64,000 nucleotides of DNA from a virus (Duplodnaviria > Heunggongvirae > Uroviricota > Caudoviricetes), in the IMG/VR virus record IMGVR_UViG_3300036770_007945, positions 1-64,000 of that record. One strand, written 5' to 3'. Of this stretch, positions 3,775 to 63,857 are shown piece by piece; the stretch's first letter is position 1; every line of letters begins with the position of its first letter. The position numbers and the translations under genes were made by a program. Under the pieces are notes generated by a model that worked only from the letters and a program-made list of their open reading frames with translations, was not told where the DNA came from and did not search any database.

Positions 3775-4890
3775 ATGACTAAATTTTGTTTTATAGGGGA
3801 TCTTCATTTCGAAGCGTTAAATAAATATTTTGGAAAAGAGACAAATCCTGATAGGTTTATATTTGAACAGCTAGAGAAGGTAGTCAATTATTGCAGAAAG
3901 GTAGGGATTAAAAGTGTTTTTCAGTTAGGAGACGTTTTTGATCAACCTTACCCAGATCAACATGCTATTAAAGAGTTCTTAAGTTTCTTACATAAGAATC
4001 AAGATATAAATTTTTATATAATCGCAGGTAACCACGATTATTCAAATATTAAAACTACCAGCTTAGAAATCGGAACTTTTCTTGCTGACAAGGATTTACT
4101 CAAGAATGTTAAGATTTTCACCAAACCTTCTCATCTTATTATAGAAGGAATTTCTGTATTTTTTGCCCCTTACCCGGTATTTAAGAAATTTGATTTTCTA
4201 GTAGGAACTCCTTGCTTATGCTTGGGGCACTTTGAGGTTTCCGGAGCAAAACACGATAGCGGCCAGTTAATTAAAACCGGTGTCAATGGAGATTTATTAT
4301 ATCCAGAAGATTTCTGGGTATTAGGACATTTACATAGGCATCAGAATATACAACCAAAGATTTATTATACAGGCACAACCTTGCAGTATAATTTCGGAGA
4401 ACCCTTACCTAAAGGTTTTACTGTTTCCGAAATCTCCGAAGTTACAAACCTAAATACTACTGAAACCTCTACCAAAAGTTTAGAAGTAAAACACCAGTAT
4501 ATAACTTTAGATACCCCCTATAGATTAGAAAATGTTTTTATCAACACGCAAGAAGAGTTTGATCAAATTCGCATCAATGATCCTCAATACTTTTATAAAA
4601 TCTTTTTACAAGGTAGTGATTTAATTCTGCCGCAAAAATTCCTTAACGGCTCCGTTCATAACATTTACAAGATTATTAGAAATCGATCTACTACCGAAGA
4701 AAGAGATATGATTAATTCAAACAGTTTGAGTGAGACTTTCAATGATGATTGTGATAAGAGAAAATTATTTGAACCTCTAGGAGGTCTAGAAGACTACTTA
4801 AGTAAAGAGCTTTTTACCCCTGAGGAGATACAAAATACAATGCAGCAAATACAGCAACTATCTGTAGAATATAAACCTAGCAGGAATTAA
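3775..4890 (+). CDS. SbcD/Mre11-like nuclease of the calcineurin-like metallophosphoesterase family (T4 gp47-like).
   Basis: N-terminal GDLHF, then QLGDVFDQ, then IAGNHD: these are metallophosphoesterase motifs I-III in the order typical of Mre11/SbcD. Confidence 0.65.
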   Translation: MTKFCFIGDLHFEALNKYFGKETNPDRFIFEQLEKVVNYCRKVGIKSVFQLGDVFDQPYPDQHAIKEFLSFLHKNQDINFYIIAGNHDYSNIKTTSLEIGTFLADKDLLKNVKIFTKPSHLIIEGISVFFAPYPVFKKFDFLVGTPCLCLGHFEVSGAKHDSGQLIKTGVNGDLLYPEDFWVLGHLHRHQNIQPKIYYTGTTLQYNFGEPLPKGFTVSEISEVTNLNTTETSTKSLEVKHQYITLDTPYRLENVFINTQEEFDQIRINDPQYFYKIFLQGSDLILPQKFLNGSVHNIYKIIRNRSTTEERDMINSNSLSETFNDDCDKRKLFEPLGGLEDYLSKELFTPEEIQNTMQQIQQLSVEYKPSRN

Positions 4891-12115: not shown

Positions 12116-12655
12116 ATGTTTAAATCAACCAAAACTTACGGTAATGACAGAGGACTTAGTTGCTGCTTTAGACAATGGAGAGCGAAACACTCTCACTGTT
12201 CTTTACTGCACGGATACTCTATAGGAATCAAATTAACCTTCTCATCAGAGTCTTTAGATGCTTGCAACTGGGTAATGGATTTCGGAGGTCTAAAAGACTT
12301 TAAAGCTTGGGCAGATCATATGTTTGATCATACTCTAATTGTTGCTGAAGATGATCCAGAATTATATTTTTTTAAAGATATGTATAGAAGATCTGGAGTT
12401 CCTTTAGCTATAGGAGAAAAGCCTGAGGACTTCCTACCTTACAAAAGGGAAGGCCTTTGTGACTTGCGCATTGTTCCTGCTGTTGGTTGTGAGATGTTTG
12501 CGAAACTAGCTTTTGATGAAATGAACTCTCTACTTAAAAAAAAGAAAAATTGGGGTATAGTCGGTTCAGATACTCAGCTTGAAAGCGTTGAAGTTTTTGA
12601 ACATGGAGCCAATTCAGCAATCTATATTAATCCAGACCTCTTCAAGAGACTTTAA
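12116..12655 (+). CDS. queD: QueD-like protein of the 6-pyruvoyl-tetrahydropterin synthase (PTPS) family.
   Basis: FRQWRAKHSHCSLLHGYSIGIKL...WVMDFGGLK...DHMFDHTLI aligns by eye to the QueD/PTPS core (AAHRL...C..LHGH...DF..LK...LDH). The second His of the HGH zinc motif is replaced by Tyr. Confidence 0.5.
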   Translation: MFKSTKTYGNDRGLSCCFRQWRAKHSHCSLLHGYSIGIKLTFSSESLDACNWVMDFGGLKDFKAWADHMFDHTLIVAEDDPELYFFKDMYRRSGVPLAIGEKPEDFLPYKREGLCDLRIVPAVGCEMFAKLAFDEMNSLLKKKKNWGIVGSDTQLESVEVFEHGANSAIYINPDLFKRL

Positions 12656-15471: not shown

Positions 15472-15557
15472 TGGTGGAGAGGGCAGGATTTGAACCTGCG
15501 AACGCTTTCGCGGGCAGATTTACAGTCTGCTGCCATTGACCACTCGGCCACCTCTCC
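15472..15557 (-). tRNA. tRNA-Tyr (GTA) with a long variable arm.
   Basis: The reverse complement reads GGAGAGGTGGCCGAGTGGTCAATGGCAGCAGACTGTAAATCTGC...GGTTCAAATCCTGCCCTCTCCACCA. It has a 7-bp acceptor stem, a GTA anticodon in a 7-nt loop, a long variable arm, a T-loop and an encoded CCA. Confidence 0.85.
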
Positions 15558-20895: not shown

Positions 20896-21657
20896 ATGAA
20901 CAATACCCCTCTCAGGGATAAAAAAAAGAGTCCTCGATTTAAGCCGAAACCTATAACTCTACTGAAGGAAGAAATTTCAGAGCAGTCAATAACCCTGCTT
21001 GACCAACTTTATACAAAATTATTAGAGGTTAATCGAATAGTAACTCCTGAGATAGCTGAACGCCTTTGGGAATACCAGTGGCAAGAACTAACGCAAAGAA
21101 AGCTGCCACTAAGAATTAAAGAAAAATCTAAAGAAGCTTTGTGCGTTATAAAAAAGACTGCTCAAATACAAACATTTAAAGATCTAGTTGATTTTCAACA
21201 AAAAATATTAATAACTTCAGGTAGGTTACGAGAGTCTATACGAATAGCTAATATGCAGGTATTCTACCCCACTATCACGAGAAAGGCTTGGCGAGCCCCT
21301 TCACAAAAAAGTCTTCCAAAGCTTATAGAAGAACTAGACAGGTTTTTACAGGAGCCTTTTAAAAAGGATACCCCTTTGATAAAAATTTGTTTAGTTCAAT
21401 ACTTAATACTGACGGTTCATCCGTTTTGTGATGGAAATGGGAGAGTTTCTAGACTTATACTACCTCATTTATTACCAAGAGACTTACCCTTTCGGTTACA
21501 AGGAGTCAACTACTATTTTAAGAGTGAAGAATTTTATAACCTTATTGCTGAAGTAAGCGCTTTTGATTTTCCTGGAGATATAAACATATGGATTCAAGGA
21601 TGGAGTCTTATAGTCCAGAGTTATTTAGATTCATTACACCGATTACTAACAGAGTAA
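20896..21657 (+). CDS. Fic/Doc-family protein (probable AMPylase or related nucleotidyl/phosphocholine transferase).
   Basis: Canonical Fic motif HPFxDGNGRxxR, present here as VHPFCDGNGRVSRLI. Confidence 0.75.
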   Translation: MNNTPLRDKKKSPRFKPKPITLLKEEISEQSITLLDQLYTKLLEVNRIVTPEIAERLWEYQWQELTQRKLPLRIKEKSKEALCVIKKTAQIQTFKDLVDFQQKILITSGRLRESIRIANMQVFYPTITRKAWRAPSQKSLPKLIEELDRFLQEPFKKDTPLIKICLVQYLILTVHPFCDGNGRVSRLILPHLLPRDLPFRLQGVNYYFKSEEFYNLIAEVSAFDFPGDINIWIQGWSLIVQSYLDSLHRLLTE

Positions 21658-22190: not shown

Positions 22191-22267
22191 CGCCGGATTA
22201 GCTCAGTTGGTAGAGCGTAGAGCTGTTAACTCTAATATCGTAGGTTCGAGTCCTACTCCGTCAGCCA
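22191..22267 (+). tRNA. tRNA-Asn (GTT)-like gene.
   Basis: Canonical D arm (GCTC-AGTTGGTA-GAGC), anticodon arm (TAGAG-CTGTTAA-CTCTA, anticodon GTT), T arm (GTAGG-TTCGAGT-CCTAC) and a 3' GCCA. The acceptor stem as I fold it has two mismatches out of seven pairs. Confidence 0.6.
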
Positions 22268-22268
22268 T

Positions 22269-22343
22269 AAGTCAATAGTTTAATTGGTAAAACATTGGTC
22301 TCCAAAACCGAAATTATTAGTTCGAGTCTAATTTGGCTTGCCA
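22269..22343 (+). tRNA. tRNA-Trp (CCA).
   Basis: 7-bp acceptor stem (AAGTCAA/TTGGCTT with one G-U pair), D arm GTTT-AATTGGTA-AAAC, anticodon loop CTCCAAA (CCA), T arm ATTAG-TTCGAGT-CTAAT, discriminator G and CCA. It abuts the Asn-like gene. Confidence 0.8.
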
Positions 22344-22739
22344 AAATCGTAAATAAAATATGTCGGGGTTGAGCTGTAAAAAGCTACACACGAATGATAG
22401 GGGCAATTGAATTGGCTAAAAGGTATTTTGCTTTAATATGCTGGCAATAGTTGGTATATTTTCAGGGAAGTCGTGATAACCTAAGCACTAGTTGACCTAA
22501 CCAAGCCTTACAGAGGAGGGAAACCTTCGCCCCGACACTAAATCGTAAATATTTAAATGGCTAGTGTTGTGGTGGAATATAAACACTAACTTTTGAGTGA
22601 AAAACTCAATACACTACTTGAAAAGTGTGCCGACGAATACACAACCCACGAAATCGGAACTCCGCAAGGAATGAATAGCGATAATGAGTTGTAATGCAAA
22701 GGTGTAAGTCCTTTGCCAACACTAGCCCTTTAAATATTT

Positions 22740-22764
22740 AACTCGGCACGGGTAAAGAAAAGTG
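22740..22764 (+). repeat. Copy 1 of the AACTCGGCACGGGTAAAGA motif.
   Basis: Exact 19-nt core, shared with copy 2. Confidence 0.8.
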
Positions 22765-23231
22765 TAAAAGTAAGTTTTTCGACTGGAAGGGTTTCTGTTA
22801 TTGAGATAAAAAAACCGCAAAGTGACCCTCGGGAAAGTCCGACCAAACCTAGCCAGGTAAAGATGAGGGCAGAAAAACGGTTGAAAGTTAGCAACTAAAC
22901 CGATAGTTGAATTTAGCCAGTGGTTAAGTTTGGCGCAATAGGGTCTAACCCGCATAATAAATTCTTTCTTTGTTAATTGACCTAACAAAGATAAAAAGAA
23001 AAAGCTTTGCGGTAAAATTAGTAAATATTATCAATGGTTGCTACAGTAGGCAACTAGATTAAAACGAAGCCAGAACAATTGCAATTAGCTGGTGCGACAA
23101 ACAAAACATTATATATTTTGAGTGCTAACAATAAATATATGATGGGCGGTTAAATACAGTTTTTCGTTGATAATAACCCGCTAGAATAGGGCAATTATTT
23201 CTAGTCAGTTAGTCCTTCTGTAAAAAGGCAC

Positions 23232-23256
23232 AACTCGGCACGGGTAAAGATGAGTG
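23232..23256 (+). repeat. Copy 2 of the AACTCGGCACGGGTAAAGA motif.
   Basis: Identical 19-nt core followed by TGAGTG. Confidence 0.8.
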
Positions 23257-23430
23257 TAGAATCCTTCGTCCTAGCGAAACATCTAGGCGAGTTAGGAGGC
23301 TCGTGGAAAACAAGCTTGATGAAAGTCATGGCGGCTCCGTTGCAAGTCGGGATAAGAGCTCTAATGCAACAAAAGTCTGACAAGGCAACATAGTAATATA
23401 ATAAAGAGTGATTATCTTTATATTATTACG

Positions 23431-23460
23431 AGAGGGGATTAATCACCCCCTCTTTGTTTC
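23431..23460 (+). terminator. Rho-independent terminator.
   Basis: AGAGGGG-ATTAATCAC-CCCCTCT forms a 7-bp GC-rich stem followed by TTGTTTC. Confidence 0.6.
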
Positions 23461-23461
23461 T

Positions 23462-23486
23462 AACTCGGCACAGGTAAAGAAGAGTG
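23462..23486 (+). repeat. Copy 3 of the motif (AACTCGGCACAGGTAAAGA).
   Basis: 18 of 19 positions are identical. It lies immediately after a terminator hairpin. Confidence 0.8.
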
Positions 23487-24043
23487 CGCATATTTAATAC
23501 TACGAAAGATGGGTTAAGTTCGATTGACGTTTAATGATTATAATTAAACGTGAGTAGTGTTACTTCAGTTAGCTTTCTGTAAAAAAGTATAAATAATGGT
23601 GAGTCATACTCACAAGTAGTCTTCTGAACGAAACAATTTTTTGTTCGCACCAGTCAGGAGTGACTATACAATTCGGAAAGACGAATGACTGTTTTTGTTT
23701 TTGCAAAGTATTGGTTTCAGTCTAAAATACTCAATACTTAGAGACTAGTGGAAAGACACTTGACGGCTCGGAAAGAAAAGTCACGGCGCAATCAACTTTG
23801 TTTTACAAGGTTGTTCAACGAGGGAGAAAAAGGGCGAGATACAGCGGTTGTAAAGTATTTTATTAATCGTGAGAGGCGGGAAGAAATCCAGAAATGGTAG
23901 GCGGGGCTGTATCGAAATAAACATTAAGCCAAAGTAACTCAACTATATAGAGCTTTACGCGGTAGTAGGTTATCTGTAGGAATTGGATAACCGGCAAGTT
24001 TATAGATATAAGAAAGTAACTTAAATTAATCTAATTAATAGCA

Positions 24044-24298
24044 ATGACCTACACCGAAGCATATTTAATAGTAATAGCAGACGCTGTTTCAACTTTTGCT
24101 GGAGGATTAATTTTCGCTAGTTTAATATTAACGTTCATCTCCGGAGGTTTAGGTTTCTTCGAGAATAATTCGACTGCTAAAAAACTTTTCTGGTTTTTAT
24201 TCCTACCACTGTTATGTTTTAGTATAGTTGCGAAAACTTTATTACCAACAACAGAGCAGTTATTAATCATTTACGGCTTAACTCTAGCAAGTTGTTAA
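24044..24298 (+). CDS. Small membrane protein with 2-3 predicted TM helices.
   Basis: An 84-aa ORF consisting almost entirely of hydrophobic segments. Confidence 0.4.
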   Translation: MTYTEAYLIVIADAVSTFAGGLIFASLILTFISGGLGFFENNSTAKKLFWFLFLPLLCFSIVAKTLLPTTEQLLIIYGLTLASC

Positions 24299-24415
24299 AT
24301 TTCACTAAATTTTTATTTCGATAGATTCCTGCTAAAATCTCTTGCATACTATTTTGTTTGTTGTTATTATAGTCGTGTTTTAAAATATAACTATAACAAC
24401 AACAATAACAAACGT

Positions 24416-25471
24416 ATGAGAAAACTAGCAACTATTAGAAAAATTAATGATTTACAGCCAATTGAAGGTGCTGATAAAATAGAATTAGCAACTGTAGATG
24501 GTTGGAAAGTGGTAGTTACCAAAGGATTAAATATTGGTGATAAAATTGTTTATTGCGAAATTGATTCTTTTCTACCAATCAAGCCCGAATTTGAATTTTT
24601 AAGAAAAAGTTCTTACAAAAAACTTATTGATGGCACAGAAGGTTTTAGATTAAAAACTATTAAACTTAGAGGACAGATCTCACAAGGTTTGTGTATTCCA
24701 CTAAATGAATTACCGCAACTCGCCAATAATCAAATTGGTGATGATGTAAGTGAAATTTTGGGAATAATTAAATACGATCCACCAATCCCAGCTTCATTAA
24801 GCGGATTAGCAAAGGGCAACTTTCCTTCTTTCTTAAGAAAGACTGATGAAGAAAGAGTTCAAAACTTAGCTAAAGAATATCAAGAATATCTAAAAAGTGG
24901 TAAAAAGTTTTATGCTACAGAAAAATTAGATGGCTCATCAGCTACTTTTTACTTAAGAGATGGTGTTTTTGGAGTTTGTTCAAGAAACTTAGAACTAAAA
25001 GAAGAGGTTTATGTTCCTGAGGATATTTTGTGCGAAGATGGGGTAATAAGAACTAAAAAACAAAATTCATTCTGGAAAGTAGCTAGGGAATTAGATATTG
25101 AAAATAAATTAAAACAATTGCCATTTAATGCTTGCTTGCAAGGAGAGTTAATTGGAGAAGGGATACAAGGAAATCCTTATAACATTAAAGGACACTCTGT
25201 TAGATTTTTTAATTTGTTCAATATTGATACTTATGAATATAAACCAATTTACGATTTAGAGTATTTCTGCAAGGAAAATGCTTTGCAAACAATTCCTATT
25301 GTTTCTTCTGAGTTTCTTTTGCCCAATACGATTGATGAGCTTCTTCTTTTAGCAGAAGGAAAATCAAACCTCTTTGATTGCGAGCGAGAAGGTTTAGTAA
25401 TTAGGGATATTGATAATACTATAAGCTTTAAAGTAATTTCCAATAAATTTTTAATAAAGACTAACAATTAA
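24416..25471 (+). CDS. RNA ligase of the nucleotidyltransferase superfamily.
   Basis: Motif I KxDG is present as ATEKLDGSSATFY. The N-terminal MRKLATIRKI...ELATVDGWKVVV resembles the N-terminal module of the Rnl-type RNA-ligase families. Confidence 0.55.
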   Translation: MRKLATIRKINDLQPIEGADKIELATVDGWKVVVTKGLNIGDKIVYCEIDSFLPIKPEFEFLRKSSYKKLIDGTEGFRLKTIKLRGQISQGLCIPLNELPQLANNQIGDDVSEILGIIKYDPPIPASLSGLAKGNFPSFLRKTDEERVQNLAKEYQEYLKSGKKFYATEKLDGSSATFYLRDGVFGVCSRNLELKEEVYVPEDILCEDGVIRTKKQNSFWKVARELDIENKLKQLPFNACLQGELIGEGIQGNPYNIKGHSVRFFNLFNIDTYEYKPIYDLEYFCKENALQTIPIVSSEFLLPNTIDELLLLAEGKSNLFDCEREGLVIRDIDNTISFKVISNKFLIKTNN

Positions 25472-25482
25472 ATAATAAAAAT

Positions 25483-25905
25483 ATGAAAGAGTTAAATAAT
25501 GAAAATATGAAAGAGTCTAAAGAATTCCTTAAGATTGAAATTCTTGTGATGGTAGTGTTAGGCCTTATGGTTTACCTTGCGTATAAAAGGTCTACAAATC
25601 TTACAGAAGCTATAAATTATGCAAATCAGGTTAACCACTACACCAAAGAGCGCGGTTTGCCAACAATTGAACAACCGGAAAGAGTAAACTGTAAAGTAAT
25701 TAACCAGTCTTTAGTAGCGGATCCAAGAAGAGACAGCTTGAAGTTTAAAAGAGGGAGGAAAATAACAACGTTTGATTGTGGATACAAAATAGGAATAATC
25801 TCTACAGACGACGACGCTATTTTTCGAAAAGCGAAAGAGAATAGTATTTTAAAAGTCTATTTCTATAGAGGATCTTACCAGATTTTAGGTATAGACCATG
25901 AGTAA
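25483..25905 (+). CDS. Hypothetical membrane-anchored protein.
   Basis: A 140-aa ORF with one N-proximal hydrophobic helix. Confidence 0.4.
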   Translation: MKELNNENMKESKEFLKIEILVMVVLGLMVYLAYKRSTNLTEAINYANQVNHYTKERGLPTIEQPERVNCKVINQSLVADPRRDSLKFKRGRKITTFDCGYKIGIISTDDDAIFRKAKENSILKVYFYRGSYQILGIDHE

Positions 25906-26410
25906 TGAAGTTTTTTTAATATCAGACACACATTTTGGGCACAGTAATCTTCTTGCATTTAAAGATGGGTTAGGTCAACCAATTCGCCCTTATAAGACTC
26001 TCGAAGAGATGGAAGAAGCTCTGATAAGTAACTGGAATAGTGTCGTTCGCCCTAACGATAGAGTCTATCATTTAGGAGATGTGGCAATGTCGAAGAAAGG
26101 CTTATTATGTTTAAGAAGGTGTAATGGTAATAAGGTATTAATTCGAGGAAACCACGATACCTTTAAATTAAAAGATTATGCAGAACACTTTAAAGACATA
26201 CGAGGCGCTTGTGTTTTAGGTGGGTATGTGCTTACCCATATTCCAATTCACAGGGAGTGTTCAGGGAAATTCAAAAAGAATATACATGGACACCTCCACG
26301 CGAATAAACTCAATGATTCTTTTTACATCAATGTGAGTGTCGAACAAATTAACTTTACTCCTATCAATTTTGAGGAATTGCAAGTAGATGATCTCTTAAT
26401 AACAACTTAA
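25898..26410 (+). CDS. Calcineurin-like metallophosphoesterase.
   Basis: Motifs ISDTHFGH, YHLGD and RGNHD, followed by GHLH. Confidence 0.65.
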   Translation: MSNEVFLISDTHFGHSNLLAFKDGLGQPIRPYKTLEEMEEALISNWNSVVRPNDRVYHLGDVAMSKKGLLCLRRCNGNKVLIRGNHDTFKLKDYAEHFKDIRGACVLGGYVLTHIPIHRECSGKFKKNIHGHLHANKLNDSFYINVSVEQINFTPINFEELQVDDLLITT

Positions 26411-26425
26411 TTCAGTAATAATTAT

Positions 26426-27127
26426 ATGAACAATAACTATATGAATATACCTTTCAAAGTAAGACTACTGACGCCAACAGCAAAGGCGCCAGAAAAGCCA
26501 GATGAAGCAAGTTTGTGGGATCTATTTGCCGATAGCTTCTCAACCCAAGAATTACAAGATTTTTCCTCTAGTGGTGAGGATAGCTTCACTTCATTGAACA
26601 AACTTCTCACTTACGAATTAGCAGAGAGCCAGTATATAACAACTTTTGATGGGGGCAAAAAAGGTTTAGATGATGATTTAAAAGTGTTTAGGAGATTCGG
26701 TCTTGAAATATACGAAGACTCTGAGCAAAGAGATTGCGTAGGTTTTGAGTTATACCCACAAGGACGGGTGTTAGTCAGAACCGGGATCTCTTTAGAACTG
26801 CCAATAGCTTTCGGAGCTCCTCAGGGATCTTGGTATTTCAAGGAAGAACAAGAAAAAACCAGAGCTTTAAACGCAATTGATGTCTACGCTGTAGCCGATA
26901 TTTACCCTCGGGAAGAATTAGCTTTAAAACACGGGATCGCGATTTTAAACTCGCCTAATACTGTAGATAGTTCTTATAAGAACGAATTATGCATAGTTCT
27001 TCTTAATGCAGGGCATGAACCTTATGTTGTTTGCAAAGGCAGTAAGGTTGCTCGAATGTTAATTCGCCCTCATTATAGGAGTTCCTTCCAGATTGTAACC
27101 GACCCAAGAAATAGTCAAACCTCTTAA
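26426..27127 (+). CDS. dUTPase / dCTP-deaminase-fold protein.
   Basis: RTG (an RSG-like motif 2), GIAILNSPNTVDSSYKNELCIVLLN (motif-3-like G.iDsdYrGe..v.l.N) and VARMLI (motif-4-like). There is a ~90-aa insertion after the motif-1-like region. Confidence 0.5.
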   Translation: MNNNYMNIPFKVRLLTPTAKAPEKPDEASLWDLFADSFSTQELQDFSSSGEDSFTSLNKLLTYELAESQYITTFDGGKKGLDDDLKVFRRFGLEIYEDSEQRDCVGFELYPQGRVLVRTGISLELPIAFGAPQGSWYFKEEQEKTRALNAIDVYAVADIYPREELALKHGIAILNSPNTVDSSYKNELCIVLLNAGHEPYVVCKGSKVARMLIRPHYRSSFQIVTDPRNSQTS

Positions 27128-27149
27128 TTTAGGAATAATCTAGAAATTT

Positions 27150-27428
27150 ATGACTATGATAATATCTGAACAAGCCATAAAAGTCTTCGAAATAATTAAA
27201 AGTCTTTTAGAAAATTCTTTCGGAAGGCTTGGTTATAATATAGAGTTTAATACTAAACTAACTACTAAAGGCTTACAACTGTCACCTTATGCTCTTTGTG
27301 AACTCAAAGAGGCTTTAGAAGATTTATGTTTTGTGCCTCTAAGTGCGGAGACCTTCAACCGCTGTGATACCATTGGGGACGTTATAGAACTCATAATAGT
27401 AAGCCTAAAAGAGAGTTACTATAAATAA
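27150..27428 (+). CDS. Hypothetical small acidic protein.
   Basis: A 92-aa ORF. A faint resemblance to acyl-carrier protein was not pursued. Confidence 0.35.
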   Translation: MTMIISEQAIKVFEIIKSLLENSFGRLGYNIEFNTKLTTKGLQLSPYALCELKEALEDLCFVPLSAETFNRCDTIGDVIELIIVSLKESYYK

Positions 27429-27574
27429 GGAAAACAAGGTTTAATCGGAATTTTTGATGAAACATTAAAAACATGTATTAAAATAAAGAAATATTATACT
27501 TGCTTTTAAAAATAGAGTAATTACTATTTATTAAGTTACGAATAAATAATAAACAAATAAATAAATAAAAACAT

Positions 27575-28756
27575 ATGAAAAAAGCAGAAATAAAAAAAAG
27601 AGTGTTAAAAAACGGCAAACCTCTTAATTTAAATGACTTCGAGTGGGATGAAGAGACTAAAACATTCTCAACAAGTGAGATCGGATTGGTTTTAGATTTT
27701 ACACTGATTAGTGGCTGCAGTTTTAAAACTGGCGATTACTGCACTTTTAAGACTGGGGATAACTGCAGTTTTAAAACTGGGGATAGCTGCATTTTTAAGA
27801 CTGGGAGTGCTTGTGTTTTTAAAACAGGGAATACCTGCACTTTTGACGCAGGCTACGACTGCACTTTTACCACAAGCGATCACTGCACTTTTAACACAAG
27901 CTACGACTGCACTTTTAACACAGGTTGGCACTGCACTTTTAACACAGGCGGTGACTGCACTTTTAACACAGGCTATAGCTGCAATTTTATCACAAACAAT
28001 AGGTGTATTTTTAACACAAGCTATAACTGCACTTTTAAGACAGAGTCTGACTGCACTTTTAACACAGGCGACTACTGCACTTTTAAGACAGAGTCTAACT
28101 GCACTTTTAACACAGGCGACTACTGCACTTTTAACACAGAGTCTAACTGCACTTTTAACACAGGCGACTACTGCACTTTTAACACAAGCTACGACTGCAC
28201 TTTTAAAACTGGTCTTGAATGTGTAATTGTCAATCGCAATGTTTTTGAAGTAATCCAGCCAAAAGAAGGTGATATAATACAAATTTGCCCTAAAAGTATA
28301 GAAGGTCATTTAGTGAATGGTATCCATAGTATAACTGGTAAAAAATCAATAATAGCAGATGGAATATTATCAGAGATTATATCAAAAAAAGGCAATGTCT
28401 ATAAGGTTATCAATCACGGCGAAACTAAAAAATCTTTTTTAGTTGAAAAAGAAATTAACAATAAAAAATATTACTCTCACGGAGCTTCTCTAAAAGAAGC
28501 TAAAGAAAGTTTAGTATTTAAAATAAGTGATCGAGATTTATCAAAGTGGGAACATTTAAATCTTACTAGTGAGATTAGTTTTGAAGAAGCTATAATGCTA
28601 TACAGAGATATAACTGGAGCTTGTAGAGAAGGAACTAAATACTTTGTTGATAATAATGTTGATAAGAAAAAAGATAAATATTCAATTACTGAATTGTTAG
28701 AAATAACAAAAGACCGGTATGGATACTCCGAATTTAAAAACTTCTTTAATAAATAA
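27575..28756 (+). CDS. Cys-containing octapeptide-repeat protein, paralog A.
   Basis: About 20 tandem 8-aa units (C[T/S/V]F[K/N/T]TG..), encoded by a 24-bp DNA repeat. They are flanked by a ~45-aa N-terminal domain and a ~180-aa C-terminal domain shared with paralog B. Confidence 0.7.
   Translation: MKKAEIKKRVLKNGKPLNLNDFEWDEETKTFSTSEIGLVLDFTLISGCSFKTGDYCTFKTGDNCSFKTGDSCIFKTGSACVFKTGNTCTFDAGYDCTFTTSDHCTFNTSYDCTFNTGWHCTFNTGGDCTFNTGYSCNFITNNRCIFNTSYNCTFKTESDCTFNTGDYCTFKTESNCTFNTGDYCTFNTESNCTFNTGDYCTFNTSYDCTFKTGLECVIVNRNVFEVIQPKEGDIIQICPKSIEGHLVNGIHSITGKKSIIADGILSEIISKKGNVYKVINHGETKKSFLVEKEINNKKYYSHGASLKEAKESLVFKISDRDLSKWEHLNLTSEISFEEAIMLYRDITGACREGTKYFVDNNVDKKKDKYSITELLEITKDRYGYSEFKNFFNK
27710..28225. 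repeat. 24-bp tandem repeat array (TGCACTTTTAACACAGGCGACTAC-like).
   Basis: It encodes the CxFxTGxx units. Both strands are ORF-open across it. Confidence 0.8.
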
Positions 28757-35265: not shown

Positions 35266-35273
35266 ACTATCGT

Positions 35274-35516
35274 ATGAATAATAATAACGATTTAATCTTC
35301 TATATACCTACAGTAATAACTATCGCGATAAACATCGTGTTTCTCGTATATTTGTTTGTAAAGGCGAAAGGAGATTTATGGAAGTATACGTTAGTCTTAA
35401 TCTTGTTATCTCTAATGTGCATTAGATTAGAAATCCGCAGATTAAAGGAGGAAATAGCTAAAGTAGAAGAAGTAAAGATTTACTGCAAAACCTTAATAGA
35501 ACAACGGCTTTTTTAA
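35274..35516 (+). CDS. Small membrane protein.
   Basis: An 80-aa ORF with two hydrophobic helices. Confidence 0.35.
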   Translation: MNNNNDLIFYIPTVITIAINIVFLVYLFVKAKGDLWKYTLVLILLSLMCIRLEIRRLKEEIAKVEEVKIYCKTLIEQRLF

Positions 35517-35540
35517 TTTAAACAACTAATTATTATCTAT

Positions 35541-35774
35541 ATGTTATCTATTTTTTCTCGAAAGTTTAATATAAATGAGAATGAAAATTCTTACAATATC
35601 ATTAAAACCTCAACATTTTCAAAAAATAGTGAGGCTAAGTCTGCAAAGTATTATTATGAAGGTGGAAAAATTAATCATGAAAAGACGGATTTAATTTTAC
35701 ACGGCAAAACCGACGGAAGCCTAACAGAATTGAAAAAACTTCACAAAAGAGCAAGAGATCTTTTATACTCTTAA
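35541..35774 (+). CDS. Hypothetical small protein.
   Basis: A 77-aa ORF. Confidence 0.3.
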   Translation: MLSIFSRKFNINENENSYNIIKTSTFSKNSEAKSAKYYYEGGKINHEKTDLILHGKTDGSLTELKKLHKRARDLLYS

Positions 35775-35847
35775 TTCTAAACTCTTCGGTATTTTATTTA
35801 ATTGTTTTAATTAAATAAAATACCGTGAGAACAATAAATAAAAATAT

Positions 35848-36300: not shown

Positions 36301-36312
36301 AATAAAAATAAT

Positions 36313-36549
36313 ATGAAAAATCAAAAAGATATTCCTGATATAATAAACTCGCAACTTCTAGGAAAAATTGCTCAACATTTAAGATGTAGTAGTAAACTTG
36401 CTAAGTCTATAAAAGCGGATCTAGAAAAATTGAAACACCTTAACGAAGAAGACAAGAGACGAGATAAGATACTAAAAGAATCTTTTGATGTTTGTGAAAA
36501 ACAATTACACACTATTAAAAAAAGGAACAAAATAATTTTATGCAGGTAA
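36313..36549 (+). CDS. Hypothetical small protein.
   Basis: A 78-aa ORF. Confidence 0.3.
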   Translation: MKNQKDIPDIINSQLLGKIAQHLRCSSKLAKSIKADLEKLKHLNEEDKRRDKILKESFDVCEKQLHTIKKRNKIILCR

Positions 36550-36770
36550 AATTTATAAAAAACTTCAAGCTCTTTTTAGAGAAGCTACTAATCCTGTTTT
36601 TGATAATCCTCTTACTAAATTCCTGCAAAGAACTTAAGGAACCTGTTAAGAATACTGATAGCGAGCAGGCAGGGCTTTATAACCACTGTTTCTCTATAAT
36701 TCATAACATTAAAGTCTGTGAACAAATAACAAATTTTATTTTGTTTTTGCAAGAGGCTAAAGACTTATAA
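36540..36770 (+). CDS. Hypothetical small membrane protein.
   Basis: A 76-aa ORF with an N-terminal hydrophobic helix. Confidence 0.3.
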   Translation: MQVKFIKNFKLFLEKLLILFLIILLLNSCKELKEPVKNTDSEQAGLYNHCFSIIHNIKVCEQITNFILFLQEAKDL

Positions 36771-36781
36771 ATACAGAATAA

Positions 36782-39904: not shown

Positions 39905-39957
39905 AGTCTTATAAAATTTAAGTTAATATTTGTTTGTTATTCATTAATTCTAATTAG

Positions 39958-40967: not shown

Positions 40968-42308
40968 ATGGCAATTATAACAATAAAATCTAACCGCAAG
41001 GGATTCTCTTATGAGTTAAATAAGAATCCGAAATCCGGATTGCAGGCAAAAAGCTGCAGAGAGGGGATTCTTTTTGGTTTCTTTTCTCGGAAAGGTAAGA
41101 CTTTTAATCTATATTTTCAGGATAGTCCTCTTCTAGTATCCTTTCCCAACACGGAAGAGACGGAGGTAAACTACAACGACTTGACTAGGTATACTAGTCC
41201 TGAATGCTACCTGCATATGCTCGATAAAGGAATCTCTATCAAAGAGCCTGAAGAAGACGTAGAGTCGTTTAACGGCACTTACACTATGTCATTAAGTGGT
41301 GTTACAATCAAAAATACGGAGTTAGCTAAACTATTTGTCTCAGGTGTTCAAGATAAAGTTAAGATTGTTTTCAAAAAACTTTTATTAGAAAATGATGAGA
41401 TCTTTGCTGTGACTTTCGAAATGAAAGCGACATGTCTATACAATATAGTGCAAGTAGTTAAGCTTTTTCTACTTTTAATGTTTGCTCATAACACATCAGG
41501 TGAAAAGCAAAGATACTTTGCTCCGGAACAGGTATGGAAGTATTTACAGCAACTAGTTAGATTAAACCTAAACTATAAGTTACGCTGTGTTTTTAAAGAT
41601 TCTTTTCTACAAAACAGCCTTTTCAAAACAAAATATAAAGAGTTATTAGAAAGGTCTCCTACGCACAGTTATACTTTTAATGTCGATTCAAATCTACAAC
41701 AATGTAAAAACTACATCATGGCTTTACCTATGGTGCATGACTATAAACACATTATAACATTAGGAGATCTAGCAGGGGCTTATTATAAGACTTTGATTAA
41801 GAAGCTAGTAGACACAAAGGAAGATAATATTTACCTTTCGTTATTAGGTGTAAATGATAGGATTGCTTCAAAAGCGTCTCAAGATTCTGTTCAGGAGGCA
41901 TGCGCCGTAAACATTTATAACACAGTAGAAGATATAAAGTCTTCCTTAGGAGATTTTACTAAGAAAGGGGCGGCCACTTTAATAATCCATCTTGAGGATT
42001 TAGAAAAATATTCGCAAAAACCTTTGATTAGTGTCTCTGATGAAGAGGAGGGTAGTATAAATTCCGCTTGCGAGTTGATTAAAGGTCTAAGCGCAAAACA
42101 ATTCACTCTCGAAGACTTACAGGTAAGTAAAATAGTAGTAGTCGACTGTTTAGAATCTGAGGATGACTCTCAAGTAGATACTAAATACCGCTTGCTATTT
42201 TTAAAGGCTTTGGGATGTTCATGGGAGTTAATAAATAGCACTTTAGTAGGGGATAGAGTTGACGATTATCAGCCTTACCGTGTCGATATCTACAACGAGC
42301 TTTACTAG
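40968..42308 (+). CDS. Hypothetical protein.
   Basis: A 446-aa ORF. Confidence 0.45.
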   Translation: MAIITIKSNRKGFSYELNKNPKSGLQAKSCREGILFGFFSRKGKTFNLYFQDSPLLVSFPNTEETEVNYNDLTRYTSPECYLHMLDKGISIKEPEEDVESFNGTYTMSLSGVTIKNTELAKLFVSGVQDKVKIVFKKLLLENDEIFAVTFEMKATCLYNIVQVVKLFLLLMFAHNTSGEKQRYFAPEQVWKYLQQLVRLNLNYKLRCVFKDSFLQNSLFKTKYKELLERSPTHSYTFNVDSNLQQCKNYIMALPMVHDYKHIITLGDLAGAYYKTLIKKLVDTKEDNIYLSLLGVNDRIASKASQDSVQEACAVNIYNTVEDIKSSLGDFTKKGAATLIIHLEDLEKYSQKPLISVSDEEEGSINSACELIKGLSAKQFTLEDLQVSKIVVVDCLESEDDSQVDTKYRLLFLKALGCSWELINSTLVGDRVDDYQPYRVDIYNELY

Positions 42309-50159: not shown

Positions 50160-50339
50160 AAATGTTTTTTAGAAATTACAAAGAAATTAACCTTTAATTC
50201 TAGAGGTTATTTTTATAGTTGCAATAAGATTTTTGTATTTTTATAATGAAAAAATTCTAATAAAATTTTAGAATAGAGGTCGTTGTTAGGACGCCTTAAT
50301 TTTAGTTTATTTTTTCTCAATCCACTAACCGTTTCCATA

Positions 50340-51491
50340 ATGAGCATCCTAGCTATTCCGACGTATTTCTCTCAAGTCTCGAAAGCTTTAGAAGAGATAC
50401 AACCTAACATACCAGTATATATAATGAAGAGACACATACTGGAAGAAAAAGTAAAGACTTTTAGTGCAATTTTTCAAGGAAGAGTCCTTTACTCGGTGAA
50501 AAGCAACCCCTGTGAAAAAATTCTAACAACTTTATATAGTTTAGGAATAAAACATTTTGATGTCGCATCGATTAAAGAAGTAGAATTATTACGAAGAATT
50601 TTACCTCAAGCTGTTTTATATTACATGCATCCTGTGAAGAGTGCGTCTAGTATTAGAGACGCTTATTTTAATCATAACGTTAAAATTTTCTCGTTAGACT
50701 CCATAGAGGAGTTACATAAAATCTACAAAGCAACAAACAATGCAAAAGACTTATCTCTACATGTTAGGATAGCAACTGAAAATAAATCTTCTGCTTTCAA
50801 CCTCTCCTCAAAATTTGGTATAGATCTAGATAAAGCTTACGAGCTTTTGATTGAGACTCGAAAGCTTGCTTCTCAATTTGGCATATGTTTTCATGTAGGT
50901 TCTCAATGTTTAGATGCGCATGCCTTCAATCAAACCTTAAGTAGACTGTCTTCCTACTTGATAGAGAAGAAAATATCTATAGACGTTGTAGATATAGGTG
51001 GAGGTTTCCCTGTTAGATATCCAGAAATGATACCTATGAATCTAAACATCTATTTAGATAAAGTGAACTCCGCAATAAATACTTTTAGAGAGGTTTTTCC
51101 TCGTTGTGATGTTTGGGCAGAGCCCGGTCGCGTTTTAGTAGCTGAAGCAGGTTCTTTAGTTGTGAGAGTAGATAGGAGAAAGGATAACGTCCTATATATC
51201 AATGATGGAGTATACGGGGGGTTGTTTGACGCAGGCACTCCCGCTTTTCGTTATCATGCAACGGCTTACAGGGGGTCACCTAATAAAGGGGAAACTCTTT
51301 CTCAAGATAATGTCATGTTCTCTTTTTATGGGCCTACTTGTGATTGTTTGGACTATATGGAGGGGCCATTCATACTACCCAAAAACATAAAAGAAGGGGA
51401 CTATATAGAACTTCATAATCTTGGAGCTTACTCAAAAAGTCTCAGAACTAACTTTAATGGTTTTTATGACTACTTGGAGCTAGACTTGTAA
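50340..51491 (+). CDS. PLP-dependent decarboxylase of the ornithine-decarboxylase (fold III) family.
   Basis: YSVKSNP is the PLP-Lys motif (YAVKCN-like). The DIGGGFP, AEPGR and GPTCDCLD motifs are characteristic of ODC-type enzymes. The track start at 50283 is a TTG; the first ATG is at 50340. Confidence 0.7.
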   Translation: MSILAIPTYFSQVSKALEEIQPNIPVYIMKRHILEEKVKTFSAIFQGRVLYSVKSNPCEKILTTLYSLGIKHFDVASIKEVELLRRILPQAVLYYMHPVKSASSIRDAYFNHNVKIFSLDSIEELHKIYKATNNAKDLSLHVRIATENKSSAFNLSSKFGIDLDKAYELLIETRKLASQFGICFHVGSQCLDAHAFNQTLSRLSSYLIEKKISIDVVDIGGGFPVRYPEMIPMNLNIYLDKVNSAINTFREVFPRCDVWAEPGRVLVAEAGSLVVRVDRRKDNVLYINDGVYGGLFDAGTPAFRYHATAYRGSPNKGETLSQDNVMFSFYGPTCDCLDYMEGPFILPKNIKEGDYIELHNLGAYSKSLRTNFNGFYDYLELDL

Positions 51492-58694: not shown

Positions 58695-59264
58695 TTACTC
58701 TTTATCCCCGAGGTTTAGGTTTGACCGAATTAGGAGTTCTTTTCCTACTAACTGAGGAGTAAGGGCTTCGATTAAAGCATCTCGCTGCTTTGAGTCCTTC
58801 TTAATGTAGCATAGTGTGACATGAGGCACGTAACCTGCAAAGGTATTTATGTGAGGCAAAAACTGTAGTCTTTGATGAGCTTCGAGAATACTTGGGGTCA
58901 AGCTTATTTTAGCTATGATACAGTAATACTCTTCTTCTGGGTATGGGCTATCAAAATACTCAACACTCTCAACTTTAACGCTCGAGAGAGTCCACCCCTT
59001 TAGAACTGTTTTAATTTGCTTGGCAATTTTCTTTGCTGGTGACAATAATCCATACAGTAAGGTGACGTGCGGGTTTTTATCCGCTACCCAACCTTTAATC
59101 CAATGTTTTTTAGGATCCGTTGATGTATAAAATTCATACGGCTCTGAAAACTTTTCAATAGTGATAGGATAAACATCAGCCATAACGCAACCCAAAGCAC
59201 TCAAATCTATATCTAGATCTTTATACAGTTCCTTAAATTGATGAGCACTATGTTGTTTATCCAT
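58695..59264 (-). CDS. 2H phosphoesterase (LigT / 2',3'-cyclic phosphodiesterase family).
   Basis: Two H-x-T-x motifs, NPHVTLLYG and VPHVTLCYI, are spaced ~85 aa apart. Confidence 0.6.
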   Translation of the reverse strand: MDKQHSAHQFKELYKDLDIDLSALGCVMADVYPITIEKFSEPYEFYTSTDPKKHWIKGWVADKNPHVTLLYGLLSPAKKIAKQIKTVLKGWTLSSVKVESVEYFDSPYPEEEYYCIIAKISLTPSILEAHQRLQFLPHINTFAGYVPHVTLCYIKKDSKQRDALIEALTPQLVGKELLIRSNLNLGDKE

Positions 59265-62531: not shown

Positions 62532-63857
62532 TTAGAGTCGAGGGTCTAGAGTCTTTTCCTGCTCCTCTATTGCAATGATGTTCGCTAAGACATTCTTATA
62601 GTGATCATTATCTACACTTAAATCTTTATAAGGAATTTTAAGTAATTGTTGAGCATTATTGAACTCCTCTATACTCAACCTCATCTTATTTTTAACATCC
62701 TTTTTAGCTAATAATTTTTGATACTTCGCTGGATTTTCTAAATAATCGAAACCATAAACAAGGCGTAGAAATTCTGGAGTTCTTACTTTTAAAGCCGGTG
62801 CAATGTTCTTCTGGGCTACTTCACTAACGTCTTCCAAGATTGGTTTAACCACAACCCCCTCTAAGTCAGAAGTGGCGTTCGAAGGATTAGCAGCCCCTGC
62901 AGCTACCTTTAATCTCAATAAAGCCTCTTTTAAAGAGAGGTTATTACCGTAATTCTCTTGACAATTGTAAGTAATGCTTGGGTCTTGGCTAATTTCCCAA
63001 TAAGATTGTGCAAAATCCGGTAGAATCTCTGTTCCATCTCGCAATACAATTTTTAAAATTGCAAAAGGTTTAAAAGTTAGGTTTCCTGCAGAGCCAAAAA
63101 GTTCAACCTGTTCAGAAAAGCGTTTGCAGCTACCTTTTAAGAGGGTGAGCTTTTCTTTTGAATCTAACACTAAGTCATTACCTTGTAAAGACTTTAGAGT
63201 ATGAAGAGTTTCTTTTGCGCGTTCCCCTAGATTAGAGGCGCTTGAATCTTTAAGACTATCTAACAAATCCATCTTTGATTTTAAGAACATAGGGAAGCTT
63301 TCTGCTTGTAAAATTTTTAATTCCTTAGCTATCAATTTTGTTAGAGGTTTATAAGTTTTATTTACTAAACCTTTACCTAAACTAAACCAAGGCAATAACT
63401 CCCCATCTAATATAAGGCATTCAATATCATATTTGTCATACAAGGCTTTTACCTTCGCAGAATGTTTAATGCGACGGAAGAAAGCTCTAAAGTTTTCTAT
63501 ACTGCCCTTGTCTTTGAAAACTCTATTAATTTTATAACCACCTCTTGAGATCATATAACAATCCGAAATTTGATCTTTGAGGTAAACAGTGCACCTGCTA
63601 CCCATATATTTTGGTTGAATTATAACTTGGTTAACTTTTTTATCTTTATAATAATTCAGGGCTGCAGACAACTCCTCTAAGGATTTTTCGTCACTTGCTG
63701 AAGGAGCTATAGTATTCGCCACAAAATTCACTTTGTGTTTTGCAAGATTTTTGATTCTTCTTATTGTAGCGCTGTCAGAGACCTCAGTAAATTTAACAGT
63801 ATTAGTGTCAAAGAGTGAGAATAGTTGTGGGCGTTTACTAGCAAAAGTATTATTCAT
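62532..63857 (-). CDS. ATP-dependent polynucleotide ligase (DNA/RNA ligase, nucleotidyltransferase superfamily).
   Basis: Motif I variant IIQPKYMGSR, motif III LILDGELLPW, motif IV EGVVVKP and motif V KVRTPEF occur in the canonical order. Confidence 0.5.
   Translation of the reverse strand: MNNTFASKRPQLFSLFDTNTVKFTEVSDSATIRRIKNLAKHKVNFVANTIAPSASDEKSLEELSAALNYYKDKKVNQVIIQPKYMGSRCTVYLKDQISDCYMISRGGYKINRVFKDKGSIENFRAFFRRIKHSAKVKALYDKYDIECLILDGELLPWFSLGKGLVNKTYKPLTKLIAKELKILQAESFPMFLKSKMDLLDSLKDSSASNLGERAKETLHTLKSLQGNDLVLDSKEKLTLLKGSCKRFSEQVELFGSAGNLTFKPFAILKIVLRDGTEILPDFAQSYWEISQDPSITYNCQENYGNNLSLKEALLRLKVAAGAANPSNATSDLEGVVVKPILEDVSEVAQKNIAPALKVRTPEFLRLVYGFDYLENPAKYQKLLAKKDVKNKMRLSIEEFNNAQQLLKIPYKDLSVDNDHYKNVLANIIAIEEQEKTLDPRL

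Follow-up and report, generated by a model that had tools for sequence, protein, structure and literature searches.

What does a tailed phage encode in a long stretch that directly follows its tRNA genes and seems to hold no protein? This question is raised by positions 22344-24040 of a 64,000-nucleotide stretch of viral DNA (Caudoviricetes; IMG/VR record IMGVR_UViG_3300036770_007945, positions 1 to 64,000), the whole of which is referred to here as the window. A previous reading made from the letters of the DNA (the sequence-only reading) had taken the segment for a cluster of structured small RNAs marked by a repeated 19-nt motif. The present analysis revealed that 22344-24040 is a non-coding, modular, structured-RNA locus on the strand of the tRNA genes with two new conserved boundary elements, namely a pseudoknot predicted from the repeated motif and an anticodon-like hairpin, and this structural description is put forward with high confidence. 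The proposal of a structured small-RNA cluster within a tRNA cluster, as in phage T4, is backed by covarying helices in the motif and in two further modules, termed X and Z below. The two tRNA genes at the head of the cluster are as follows.

22191-22267, + strand: tRNA-Asn(GUU), called by ARAGORN (Rfam tRNA, 58 bits), CCA encoded
22269-22343, + strand: tRNA-Trp(CCA), called by ARAGORN (Rfam tRNA, 64 bits), CCA encoded

The window has a G+C content of 0.349 and carries genes for a tail sheath, a RecA-like protein, a primase-like protein, and a baseplate spike. Its longest open reading frame (ORF) is that of the tail sheath (856 aa), which is ~34% identical to the sheaths of Rhizobium phage RHEph12 and Ralstonia phage phiRSL1. 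Near and distant BLAST searches against 50,697 deposited phage genomes uncovered no close relative of the window, with tRNAs as the only matches. In Rfam, likewise, only tRNAs were matched by the whole window at gathering thresholds, by the region at E ≤ 10, by 14 related loci, and by a 61-nt query comprising knot and hairpin. Taken jointly with the mechanism of processing and stability set out below, the interpretation of 22191-24040 as a tRNA and stable-RNA gene cluster of a large, low-GC, uncultivated myovirus is mildly favoured.

That 22344-24040 lacks a credible ORF was borne out, as each of its six frames contains 27-51 stops and the segment is the window's largest stretch without a 100-codon stop-free run. 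The longest + strand ORF starting with ATG spans 47 aa (in unit 2, described below) and has no homologue in a protein collection of 5.8 billion clusters. Moreover, the substitutions relative to L038, a related locus with 92.5% identity, are distributed 6/9/8 by codon phase, showing no periodicity, and single-base indels are present; a decayed or degenerate gene is contradicted by these substitutions and indels and by the homologue-less longest ORF. The G+C enrichment ascribed to the segment is real (0.378 versus 0.349 for the window) but modest, lying at the 94th percentile of 1.7-kb windows, and the contrast to the surroundings is weaker than claimed; equally GC-rich coding stretches exist in the window.

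The repeated motif and its predicted pseudoknot

The 19-nt motif AACTCGGCACRGGTAAAGA was found exactly at 22740, 23232, and 23462, as the sequence-only reading had listed it, and nowhere else in the 64 kb even with three mismatches, against 0.01 copies expected by chance. Together with the following (A/T)RAGTG, the motif is predicted to form a previously undescribed H-type RNA pseudoknot of ~26 nt on the + strand. Its stem S1 is ACUC(G)/(C)GGGU, and its stem S2 (GCAC/GUGC) pairs the S1 hairpin loop with the bases 3' of an 8-nt purine loop. The connecting loops (L1 of 1 nt, L2 of 0 nt, and the 8-nt L3 with the near-invariant sequence AAAGAWGA) are sterically ordinary for a compact H-type pseudoknot. 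In L3, G21 is invariant, and A19, A20, and A22 are each kept in at least 90% of the instances.

The two helices were read from a nearly gap-free MAFFT alignment of 27 distinct motif instances to which no structure had been fitted (A1), with S1 occupying columns 5-8/14-17 and S2 columns 10-13/26-29. Of the cells in the two helices, 86.7% were paired (81.5% for S1 and 92.2% for S2), and double-sided changes occurred at seven of the eight pairs, amounting to 39 doubly changed cells. None of 500 column shuffles reached the observed covariation, and pairing dropped to only 15-35% when the partner was slid by 1-3 columns. Stem variants of the S2 type include GCCU/AGGC, GCUC/GAGC, UGCC/GGCA, and GCAAC/GUUGC in place of GCAC/GUGC, and those of the S1 type include ACCU/AGGU, AGUC/GGCU, and AAUC/GGUU in place of ACUC/GGGU. 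In addition, 11 sequences have U-G at one S1 pair. Read from the opposite strand this pair would be C-A, and the structure is therefore assigned to the + strand RNA. The motif thus has the two covarying helices and the feasible loops of an H-type pseudoknot, the simultaneous presence of both helices being a prediction from sequence; the covariation makes it the core of an RNA pseudoknot instead of the sequence tag for which it had been taken.

A covariance model built from A1 (R1) detected four sites at E ≤ 1.5e-6 in the 64-kb window, with the next best at E=0.57. The three exact 19-mers therefore stand, but the number of knots is four, every one of them on the + strand and inside 22344-24040.

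22737-22771 (core 22741-22765), + strand: pseudoknot copy 1, R1 37.8 bits, E=8.7e-8, preceded by the AAAUAUUU spacer
22842-22876, + strand: pseudoknot copy 1b, R1 33.3 bits, E=1.5e-6, a GCC/GGC variant of the ACCUA-GCCU class
23229-23263, + strand: pseudoknot copy 2, R1 39.1 bits, E=3.6e-8, beginning 2 nt past end hairpin 1
23459-23493, + strand: pseudoknot copy 3, R1 38.7 bits, E=4.9e-8

The 'partial' copy noticed earlier near 22856 corresponds to copy 1b, a real and structurally equivalent variant (GCC.../...GGC), and the ACCUA-GCCU class of knots is present in at least 15 loci. A further CTCGG..CACGG copy proposed near 23770 was left unscored by R1, and the homologous bases form a GAAAGA-loop hairpin in L038, L055, L057, and L067. 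In these four loci a canonical knot follows this hairpin, and that knot is missing in the window. A small ORF starting from the AUG within AAAGAUGAG was also considered and rejected, because many of the 53 distinct knot instances have AAG or AAA instead, as do two of the four knots of the window.

Across viral loci, R1 matched 44 sites in 34 loci (1-4 per locus), essentially all in a non-coding RNA context, and the exact 19-mer was detected in 8 IMG/VR contigs and 36 metagenome contigs. The related contigs have ~27-34% G+C, one locus coming from a contig of 174,761 bp, and the motif lies on the same strand as the tRNA genes and downstream of them. The knot in L053 is chimeric (ACCUAGCCUAGG...GAGUGC) and resembles a product of recombination within the motif. 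Two loci (L041 930-948 and L070 3052-3070) contain the exact 19-mer without the 3' strand of S2 (…GATGTTATTGACATT) and with ORFs on the opposite strand; these 19-mers are probably chance or unrelated occurrences.

End hairpins, bodies, and modules in the window and its relatives

The second boundary element consists of CAGUUA followed by a 5-bp stem and a 7-nt loop, CUGUAAA, and is near-invariant, with the geometry of an anticodon arm. In its commonest form, GCCUU-CUGUAAA-AAGGC, the pairing is as in the variants CCCUU/AAGGG, CCAUU/AAUGG, and GCUUU/AAAGU, where it is retained. The 23-mer CAGTTAGCCTTCTGTAAAAAGGC, a conserved element at unit ends, occurs exactly in 32 IMG/VR contigs. The window contains two end hairpins.

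23206-23229, + strand: end hairpin 1, CAGUUAG + (U)CCUU-CUGUAAA-AAGG(C)
23566-23588, + strand: end hairpin 2, CAGUUA + GCUUU-CUGUAAA-AAAGU, compensatory relative to GCCUU/AAGGC

The end-hairpin loop is identical to the anticodon loop CUGUAAA of the phage's own tRNA-Tyr(GUA), a tRNA with a long variable arm encoded at 15472-15557 on the - strand, 6.6 kb upstream of the cluster. A search of 185,579 bacterial and archaeal genomes for the exact hairpin 17-mer returned 78 hits, none inside a tRNA gene, and an exact copy of a bacterial tRNA-Tyr anticodon arm was accordingly rejected. Four of the 78 hits carry the CAGTTA prefix and belong to phage-like contigs, two of which also carry the knot. The hairpin contigs L093, L102, L125, and L144 are binned in metagenome-assembled genomes (MAGs) named Rickettsiales, Ca. 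Fonsibacter lacus, and Ca. Peribacteria; these contigs are probably of phage origin, their composition having led to mis-binning, and the MAG labels give a weak hint of a freshwater SAR11-like host.

In L018 a solitary hairpin lies between true tRNAs, and the hairpin of L032 and L051 comes directly after a TTGACA-17-TATAAT consensus promoter and is then followed by the knot. On account of these free-standing and knot-preceding occurrences, the end hairpin is regarded as an independent punctuation element and not merely as the 3' partner of the knot. Several alternative structures were tried and discarded. A transfer-messenger RNA or permuted tRNA ending in the anticodon-like hairpin was rejected, as ARAGORN was negative and no D-arm lies upstream, the sequence before CAGUUA being specific to each body. 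Long-range pairing of the knot's 5' flank UAACU with CAGUUA would be in competition with S1, and knots of the ACCUA class lack it; the knot tail CAGAA, which might pair with UUCUG of the hairpin, is not conserved.

About 60 uncultivated low-GC phage contigs share one order of elements from 5' to 3': ORFs, AAATCGTAAATA, tRNAs, AAATCGTAAATA, optional tRNA-like modules, the knot, a body of 60-330 nt, CAGUUA with the hairpin, 3 nt, TATTAACTTAAA, ~11 nt, and an ATG. In these loci the motif marks the 5' boundary of units, in agreement with what had been suggested. Conversely, uniform units of 230-240 nt were not found: those of the window measure 105, 387, 230, and 127 nt (from motif to motif or end signal), and the distance from pseudoknot to hairpin in the relatives is ~115-490 nt. 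Nor do the units typically end in terminators, the usual end being the conserved anticodon-like hairpin. With four knots and two end hairpins, the window represents an expanded version of this organisation. The 41 distinct knot-to-hairpin units fell into 20 unrelated body clusters (at least 20 body types), and the best-sampled body, of the L001 type, combines a long hairpin with a tRNA-like domain (acceptor, long arm, and UUCAAGU T-loop) and shows compensatory changes. Upstream, the knot is preceded by an AU-rich spacer after a tRNA-like module in 22 of 57 cases, and also by a GAAAGA hairpin or an end hairpin. In six loci the 3' end of a tRNA-like acceptor stem adjoins the start of the knot without a gap, with the boundary between ...CAAUUGCC and ACCUAGCC, and in other loci it begins 13 nt after the tRNA-like module.

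The element TATTAACTTAAA was observed in most related loci and in five exact copies in the window (7493, 20605, 31710, 34830, and 39917), lying 10-13 nt upstream of start codons, for example at 39917-39928 (- strand) just before the tail sheath gene. Allowing one mismatch, 10 copies including the five exact ones were counted versus 3.6 expected, and TATTAACTTAAA is likely a gene-expression signal of this phage group. In many relatives the unit is followed by an ORF of ~190 aa, which matched no family and lacks a homologue in the window. In L002, a 97-aa ORF (1021-1314) downstream of the RNA unit consists almost wholly of Gly-Asn/His/Tyr/Ser/Asp dipeptide-like repeats (GNGHGDGHG…).

The remaining components of the segment are listed in order of position.

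22344-22355 and 22540-22551, + strand: spacer motif AAATCGTAAATA, first and second copy
22362-22537, + strand: Module A, closing stem GUCGGGG/CCCCGAC of 7-8 bp, abutting a 5-bp GAAA-tetraloop hairpin (22515-22528)
22559-22727, + strand: Module X, tRNA-shaped, with an 11-bp closing stem, a D-arm-like hairpin, a variable centre, and a T-arm-like hairpin
22877-23205, + strand: body of unit 1b, fold z=-2.8, 92.5% identical in L038 and matched in part in L016
23264-23429, + strand: body of unit 2, fold z=-2.6
23430-23461, + strand: intrinsic-terminator-like hairpin in the minimum-free-energy structure, 8-bp GC-rich stem and 9-nt loop, then UUGUUUCU
23596-23776, + strand: modules M and N, small hairpins and a conserved U-run (23690-23700)
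23838-23913, + strand: Module Z, three-way junction of ~76 nt with an 8-bp closing stem GAUACAGC/GCUGUAUC

Both long-range inverted repeats reported in the sequence-only reading are present, GTCGGGG/CCCCGAC at 22362-22368/22530-22536 with AAATCGTAAATA after each arm, and GGCTAGTGTTG/CAACACTAGCC at 22559-22569/22717-22727. The extended RNA structure read from them was also recovered, as both are closing stems of tRNA-like modules. In Module A, stem and hairpin form a stack of 12 bp resembling a tRNA minihelix, with a 135-nt insertion specific to this phage; L047 holds a minimal form of 45 nt (7-bp stem and 5-bp GAAA hairpin) that is identical at both ends. The fold of Module A scores z=-1.95 on the + strand and -0.39 on the - strand. 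In Module X, the 7-bp T-arm-like hairpin (22696-22716) abuts the 3' strand of the closing stem, the D-arm-like hairpin shows compensatory change (GUG/CAC here and GCG/CGC in relatives; alignments A4 and A7), and the versions in L002, L003, and L012 have a canonical GGUUCGAAUCC T-loop. Its fold scores z=-5.6 against shuffles, a value that does not assign the strand because the reverse complement scores z=-7.05. Modules A and X thus keep an acceptor-like and T-arm-like stack, X also a D-arm-like hairpin, with a variable domain replacing the centre, and neither was called as a tRNA by ARAGORN or Rfam RF00005, which called only Asn, Trp, and Tyr. More than 30 related loci in the range L003-L066 have the 12-mer AAATCGTAAATA (variant AAATCGTGAATA) on either side of their tRNA genes. 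One copy lies 5 nt 5' of the first tRNA, and another follows, at a distance of 1 nt, the encoded CCA of the final tRNA or the end of tRNA-like modules; the 12-mer may serve as a site of processing or as an element akin to a promoter.

As for the bodies, no homologues of those of units 2 and 3 were found among the related loci fetched (148 for unit 2). The terminator-like hairpin with its T-run directly before copy 3 is present where it had been described, whereas the CAGTCA/TGACTG stem at 23651-23700 did not prove to be a second terminator, since the stem is unconserved in relatives and only the T-run is kept. The hairpins of modules M and N comprise GUGAG/CUCAC, UUCG-GAAAGA-CGAA, AAGUAUUG/CAAUACUU, and AGUG-GAAAGA-CACU. 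Homologues with 72-93% identity were detected in nine loci (L013, L029, L036, L038, L039, L042, L055, L057, and L067), and they lie directly 5' of the pseudoknot in relatives. A general theme of GAAAGA-hexaloop hairpins was rejected, such hairpins being too few (two in the region and seven in 57 kb of related loci). For Module Z, RNAalifold with nine sequences gave 24 pairs, eight of them doubly compensated. This module lies upstream of the tRNAs in L004, and module order differs among the window, L004, and L038.

Processing, stability, and competing explanations

In the preferred reading, the cluster and the tRNAs would be transcribed jointly, giving a single precursor or a small number of them as in T4, and these would be cut by host enzymes of the RNase P and RNase E type at AU-rich spacers, at tRNA-like structures, and at a CAG/UUA site before the hairpin. 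Each released RNA would then begin with the pseudoknot or carry it close to its 5' end, and the hairpin would lie where one unit adjoins the next. In that position, the knot could act as a structured 5' element that stops 5'-end-dependent decay and/or serve as the handle of a single shared protein, and the hairpin could be a boundary or a 3' cap, with the specific activity residing in the hypervariable, often tRNA-like bodies. The identical end modules may also act as recombination points through which bodies are shuffled between phages, and the chimeric knot of L053 fits this view. This mechanism of processing and stability is offered tentatively, at somewhat less than even likelihood.

Several points weigh against it. 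The terminator-like hairpin at 23430-23461 lies inside the cluster, and therefore either read-through or an internal promoter would be needed for unit 3 and all that lies 3' of it. Some knots, such as copy 1b, are located inside a longer unit, with no obvious cleavage spacer before them. Protection from decay would require no more than a plain 5' hairpin, and the near-invariant AAAGAWGA argues for a more specific role, be it in binding a protein, in binding a ligand, or in catalysis. For the predicted knot itself, column 13 pairs with either column 9 or column 26 and both options covary; this shared column may reflect a junction triple or two alternating hairpins. Finally, many of the 27 instances in A1 are kin by descent, and the independent stem types number ~8.

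Among the other explanations, one is compatible with the above account of the pseudoknot. It holds that the tRNA-like modules and the anticodon-like hairpin are mimics, serving as decoys or competitive substrates for enzymes acting on tRNA anticodon arms, with host anticodon nucleases, tRNA-targeting defences, tRNA-guanine transglycosylase (TGT), and MiaA as proposed targets, so that the cluster would be an anti-defence RNA arsenal. The 5-bp stem and 7-nt loop with anticodon-arm geometry, the loop shared with the phage's tRNA-Tyr(GUA), and the free-standing hairpin between real tRNAs in L018 are in line with mimicry, and the hairpin bears UGU at positions 33-35 and AAA at 36-38, which are the identity elements of TGT and MiaA, respectively. 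The stem, however, matches no bacterial tRNA (0 of the 78 17-mer hits lie inside tRNA genes), the conserved CAGUUA 5' of the hairpin is without tRNA counterpart, and loops of 7 nt with U as their second base are not uncommon. In addition, the window encodes an unusual set of RNA end-healing and end-sealing enzymes together with a QueD/PTPS homologue, and these genes make mimicry an attractive, non-exclusive reading.

3775-4890 and 25898-26410: metallophosphoesterases
12116-12655: PTPS/QueD homologue of 179 aa (E=5e-14), an enzyme of 7-deazaguanine (preQ0/queuosine) synthesis
24416-25471: RNA ligase (PHA02142 OB + RNA_ligase)
40968-42308: protein with a Hen1 N-terminal domain (Hen1_N)
58695-59264: 2'-5' RNA ligase/2H phosphoesterase
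62532-63857: PNKP-type ligase domain

The presence of these end-healing and end-sealing genes within 64 kb suggests that the phage faces RNA- or tRNA-cleaving host defences, and phage tRNAs are known to counter tRNA-cleaving defences (PMC11464382). No other que genes were recognised in the window. The RNA ligase downstream of the cluster has no confirmed relatives in viral contigs; the exact protein recurs only on a Logan contig of 5 kb that, being 100% identical, contributes no variation. This contig (SRR11566349; L149, 5087 nt) is 100% identical to window 22825-27911, indicating that the same phage was present in that sample. On balance, mimicry is considered unlikely as the explanation of the locus.

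A broader proposal, to which only a small likelihood is attached, is that of a cassette system of hypervariable small RNAs, in which the pseudoknot, an interchangeable (often tRNA-like) body, and a tRNA-Tyr anticodon-arm mimic would together form an RNA-based, rapidly diversifying counter-defence locus. The bodies and the mimic would in that case inhibit host tRNA-targeting immunity or TGT-like modifiers, beside the phage's RNA ligase, Pnkp/Hen1-like, and 2H repair enzymes, and the invariant knot would either serve a dedicated phage protein as its handle or itself be a new, minimal knot with catalytic or ligand-binding activity.

An active knot is also the subject of an improbable reading of its own, in which it makes or regulates the unit boundaries as a new small self-cleaving ribozyme or as a ligand sensor of the preQ1-I type. 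An extremely conserved loop beside freely covarying stems would suit such an activity, as would the QueD homologue in the window and the position of the knot, which starts directly at the 3' end of a tRNA-like acceptor in six loci and 13 nt after a tRNA-like module in others. A phage precedent is provided by theta ribozymes, HDV-like (hepatitis delta virus-like) nested double pseudoknots of at least 50 nt that place catalytic knots within ±5 nt of phage tRNA ends (PMC10879173). The knot described here resembles them as a small knotted RNA just 3' of tRNA or tRNA-like genes in tailed phages that could define RNA ends, but it differs in its size of ~26 nt, in usually lying at least 13 nt from the tRNA-like end or after other elements, and in having no P1 helix and no hit to an HDV model. 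Indeed, 26 nt is smaller than any known self-cleaving ribozyme. Threading onto an HDV-like or pistol-like fold was tried and rejected for want of a P1 or P2 partner; in the HDV case the would-be P1 strand AAAGAWGA is invariant and its upstream partner is unrelated between units. Moreover, the 61-nt query matched no HDV, pistol, hatchet, twister, hammerhead, or preQ1 model even at E ≤ 10.

Compact H-type knots such as those of luteovirus frameshift signals (beet western yellows virus (BWYV) type) and of preQ1-I measure ~26-34 nt, with an S1 of 4-5 bp, an S2 of 3-4 bp, and a very short L1. The knot shares with them its size, its helices, and a conserved A-rich loop that could occupy the minor groove of S1, a likeness of architecture. 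Unlike the BWYV type, it lies outside coding regions and has no slippery site. It also differs from preQ1-I in not standing upstream of a regulated gene, since it precedes non-coding RNA (a body of 60-330 nt and then the hairpin) and not regulatable genes, and with L1 of at most 1 nt and L2 of 0 it has no ligand pocket; in the same cmscan with the 61-nt query (E ≤ 10), preQ1 and the other Rfam covariance models gave 0 hits. A catalytic or ligand-binding knot is possible but without positive support.

A very unlikely alternative is that the boundary sequences act at the DNA level, as short homologies for swapping non-coding cassettes, with no function as RNA. Cassettes of promoter and stem-loop have been described for the hyperplastic regions of T4-type phages, and the shuffled bodies, the order of which differs between phages, and the recombinant look of the L053 knot would agree with this. 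Recombination, however, would not select compensatory changes or U-G pairs on one strand only, and identity rather than covariation would be expected.

The reading of the motif as a promoter for a phage-encoded RNA polymerase of the T7/SP6 type, which the sequence-only reading had given as its alternative, can be credited with copy 3 following a terminator, with the position of the motif at unit starts, and with a superficial resemblance between ...GGTAAAGAAGAG and the SP6 sequence ...CTATAGAAGAG, but it is scarcely credible, as no copy occurs outside the locus in the 64-kb scan, the motif essentially never precedes protein genes in 70 related loci, both of its halves covary as helices with compensatory changes and strand-specific U-G pairs that fit only a + strand RNA, and no RNA polymerase was identified by Pfam among 60 proteins of the window, the genome being larger than the window (compare the related contig of 174,761 bp). 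A T4-late-type TATAAATA was observed just upstream of the knot in a dozen relatives; the window contains 15 copies versus 9.7 expected, a marginal enrichment.

Neighbouring genes, known stable RNAs, and the meaning of the locus

Some further features of the window were recorded. A Fic/DOC-domain protein with the motif HPFxDGNGR is encoded at 20896-21657, ~0.5 kb upstream of the tRNA cluster with two small ORFs between. Staggered self-matches reveal many imperfect tandem repeats, ~24 nt in period, in the ORF at 27575-28756, which also overlaps several nested ORFs on both strands. A homologue of pyridoxal phosphate-dependent ornithine/diaminopimelate/arginine decarboxylases (E=1e-38) is located at 50283-51491; as an auxiliary metabolic gene it is unusual in a phage. 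After 22344-24040, the longest stretches lacking a 100-codon open frame are 35266-35841 (576 nt) and 36301-36781 (481 nt), neither of which has an Rfam hit.

GOLLD and ROOL are elaborate non-coding RNAs of phages and prophages that tend to adjoin tRNA genes. The present locus differs from them in giving no Rfam match, in the window or in 14 related loci, and in being a chain of short interchangeable modules and not one large fold. In T4, one precursor of ~1.75 kb holds eight tRNAs as well as the species I and II RNAs (PMC2330249). Like these stable RNAs, whose function in T4 is obscure and which lie on the same strand in or after the phage tRNA cluster, the modules described here adjoin tRNA genes on the same strand, and several of them have tRNA-like closing stems and T-arm-like hairpins. 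On the other hand, there is no sequence similarity to the 50,697 phage records beyond tRNAs, the modules are more numerous, and the shared pseudoknot, the shared anticodon-like hairpin, and the hypervariable bodies have not been described for T4; processing of the cluster, moreover, is something that we infer here.

Stable RNAs in phage tRNA clusters are thus known, and what is new is the pseudoknot, the anticodon-like hairpin, and the organisation in cassettes with hypervariable bodies, all three of which are absent from Rfam 15 and from the literature searched. The end modules are common to dozens of uncultivated freshwater-type phage contigs and enclose at least 20 unrelated bodies, which genomes exchange with one another, and the alignments of this analysis already allow two new RNA families to be defined. 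For the puzzle dating from the T4 era, namely that phage tRNA clusters hide stable RNAs of obscure role, this locus offers a richer and tractable case. If the end modules are tags for processing or stability, they would be compact, reusable parts for expressing stable RNAs; if the end modules or the tRNA-like bodies mimic the targets of tRNA-directed defence or modification enzymes, they would represent a new RNA-based form of counter-defence.

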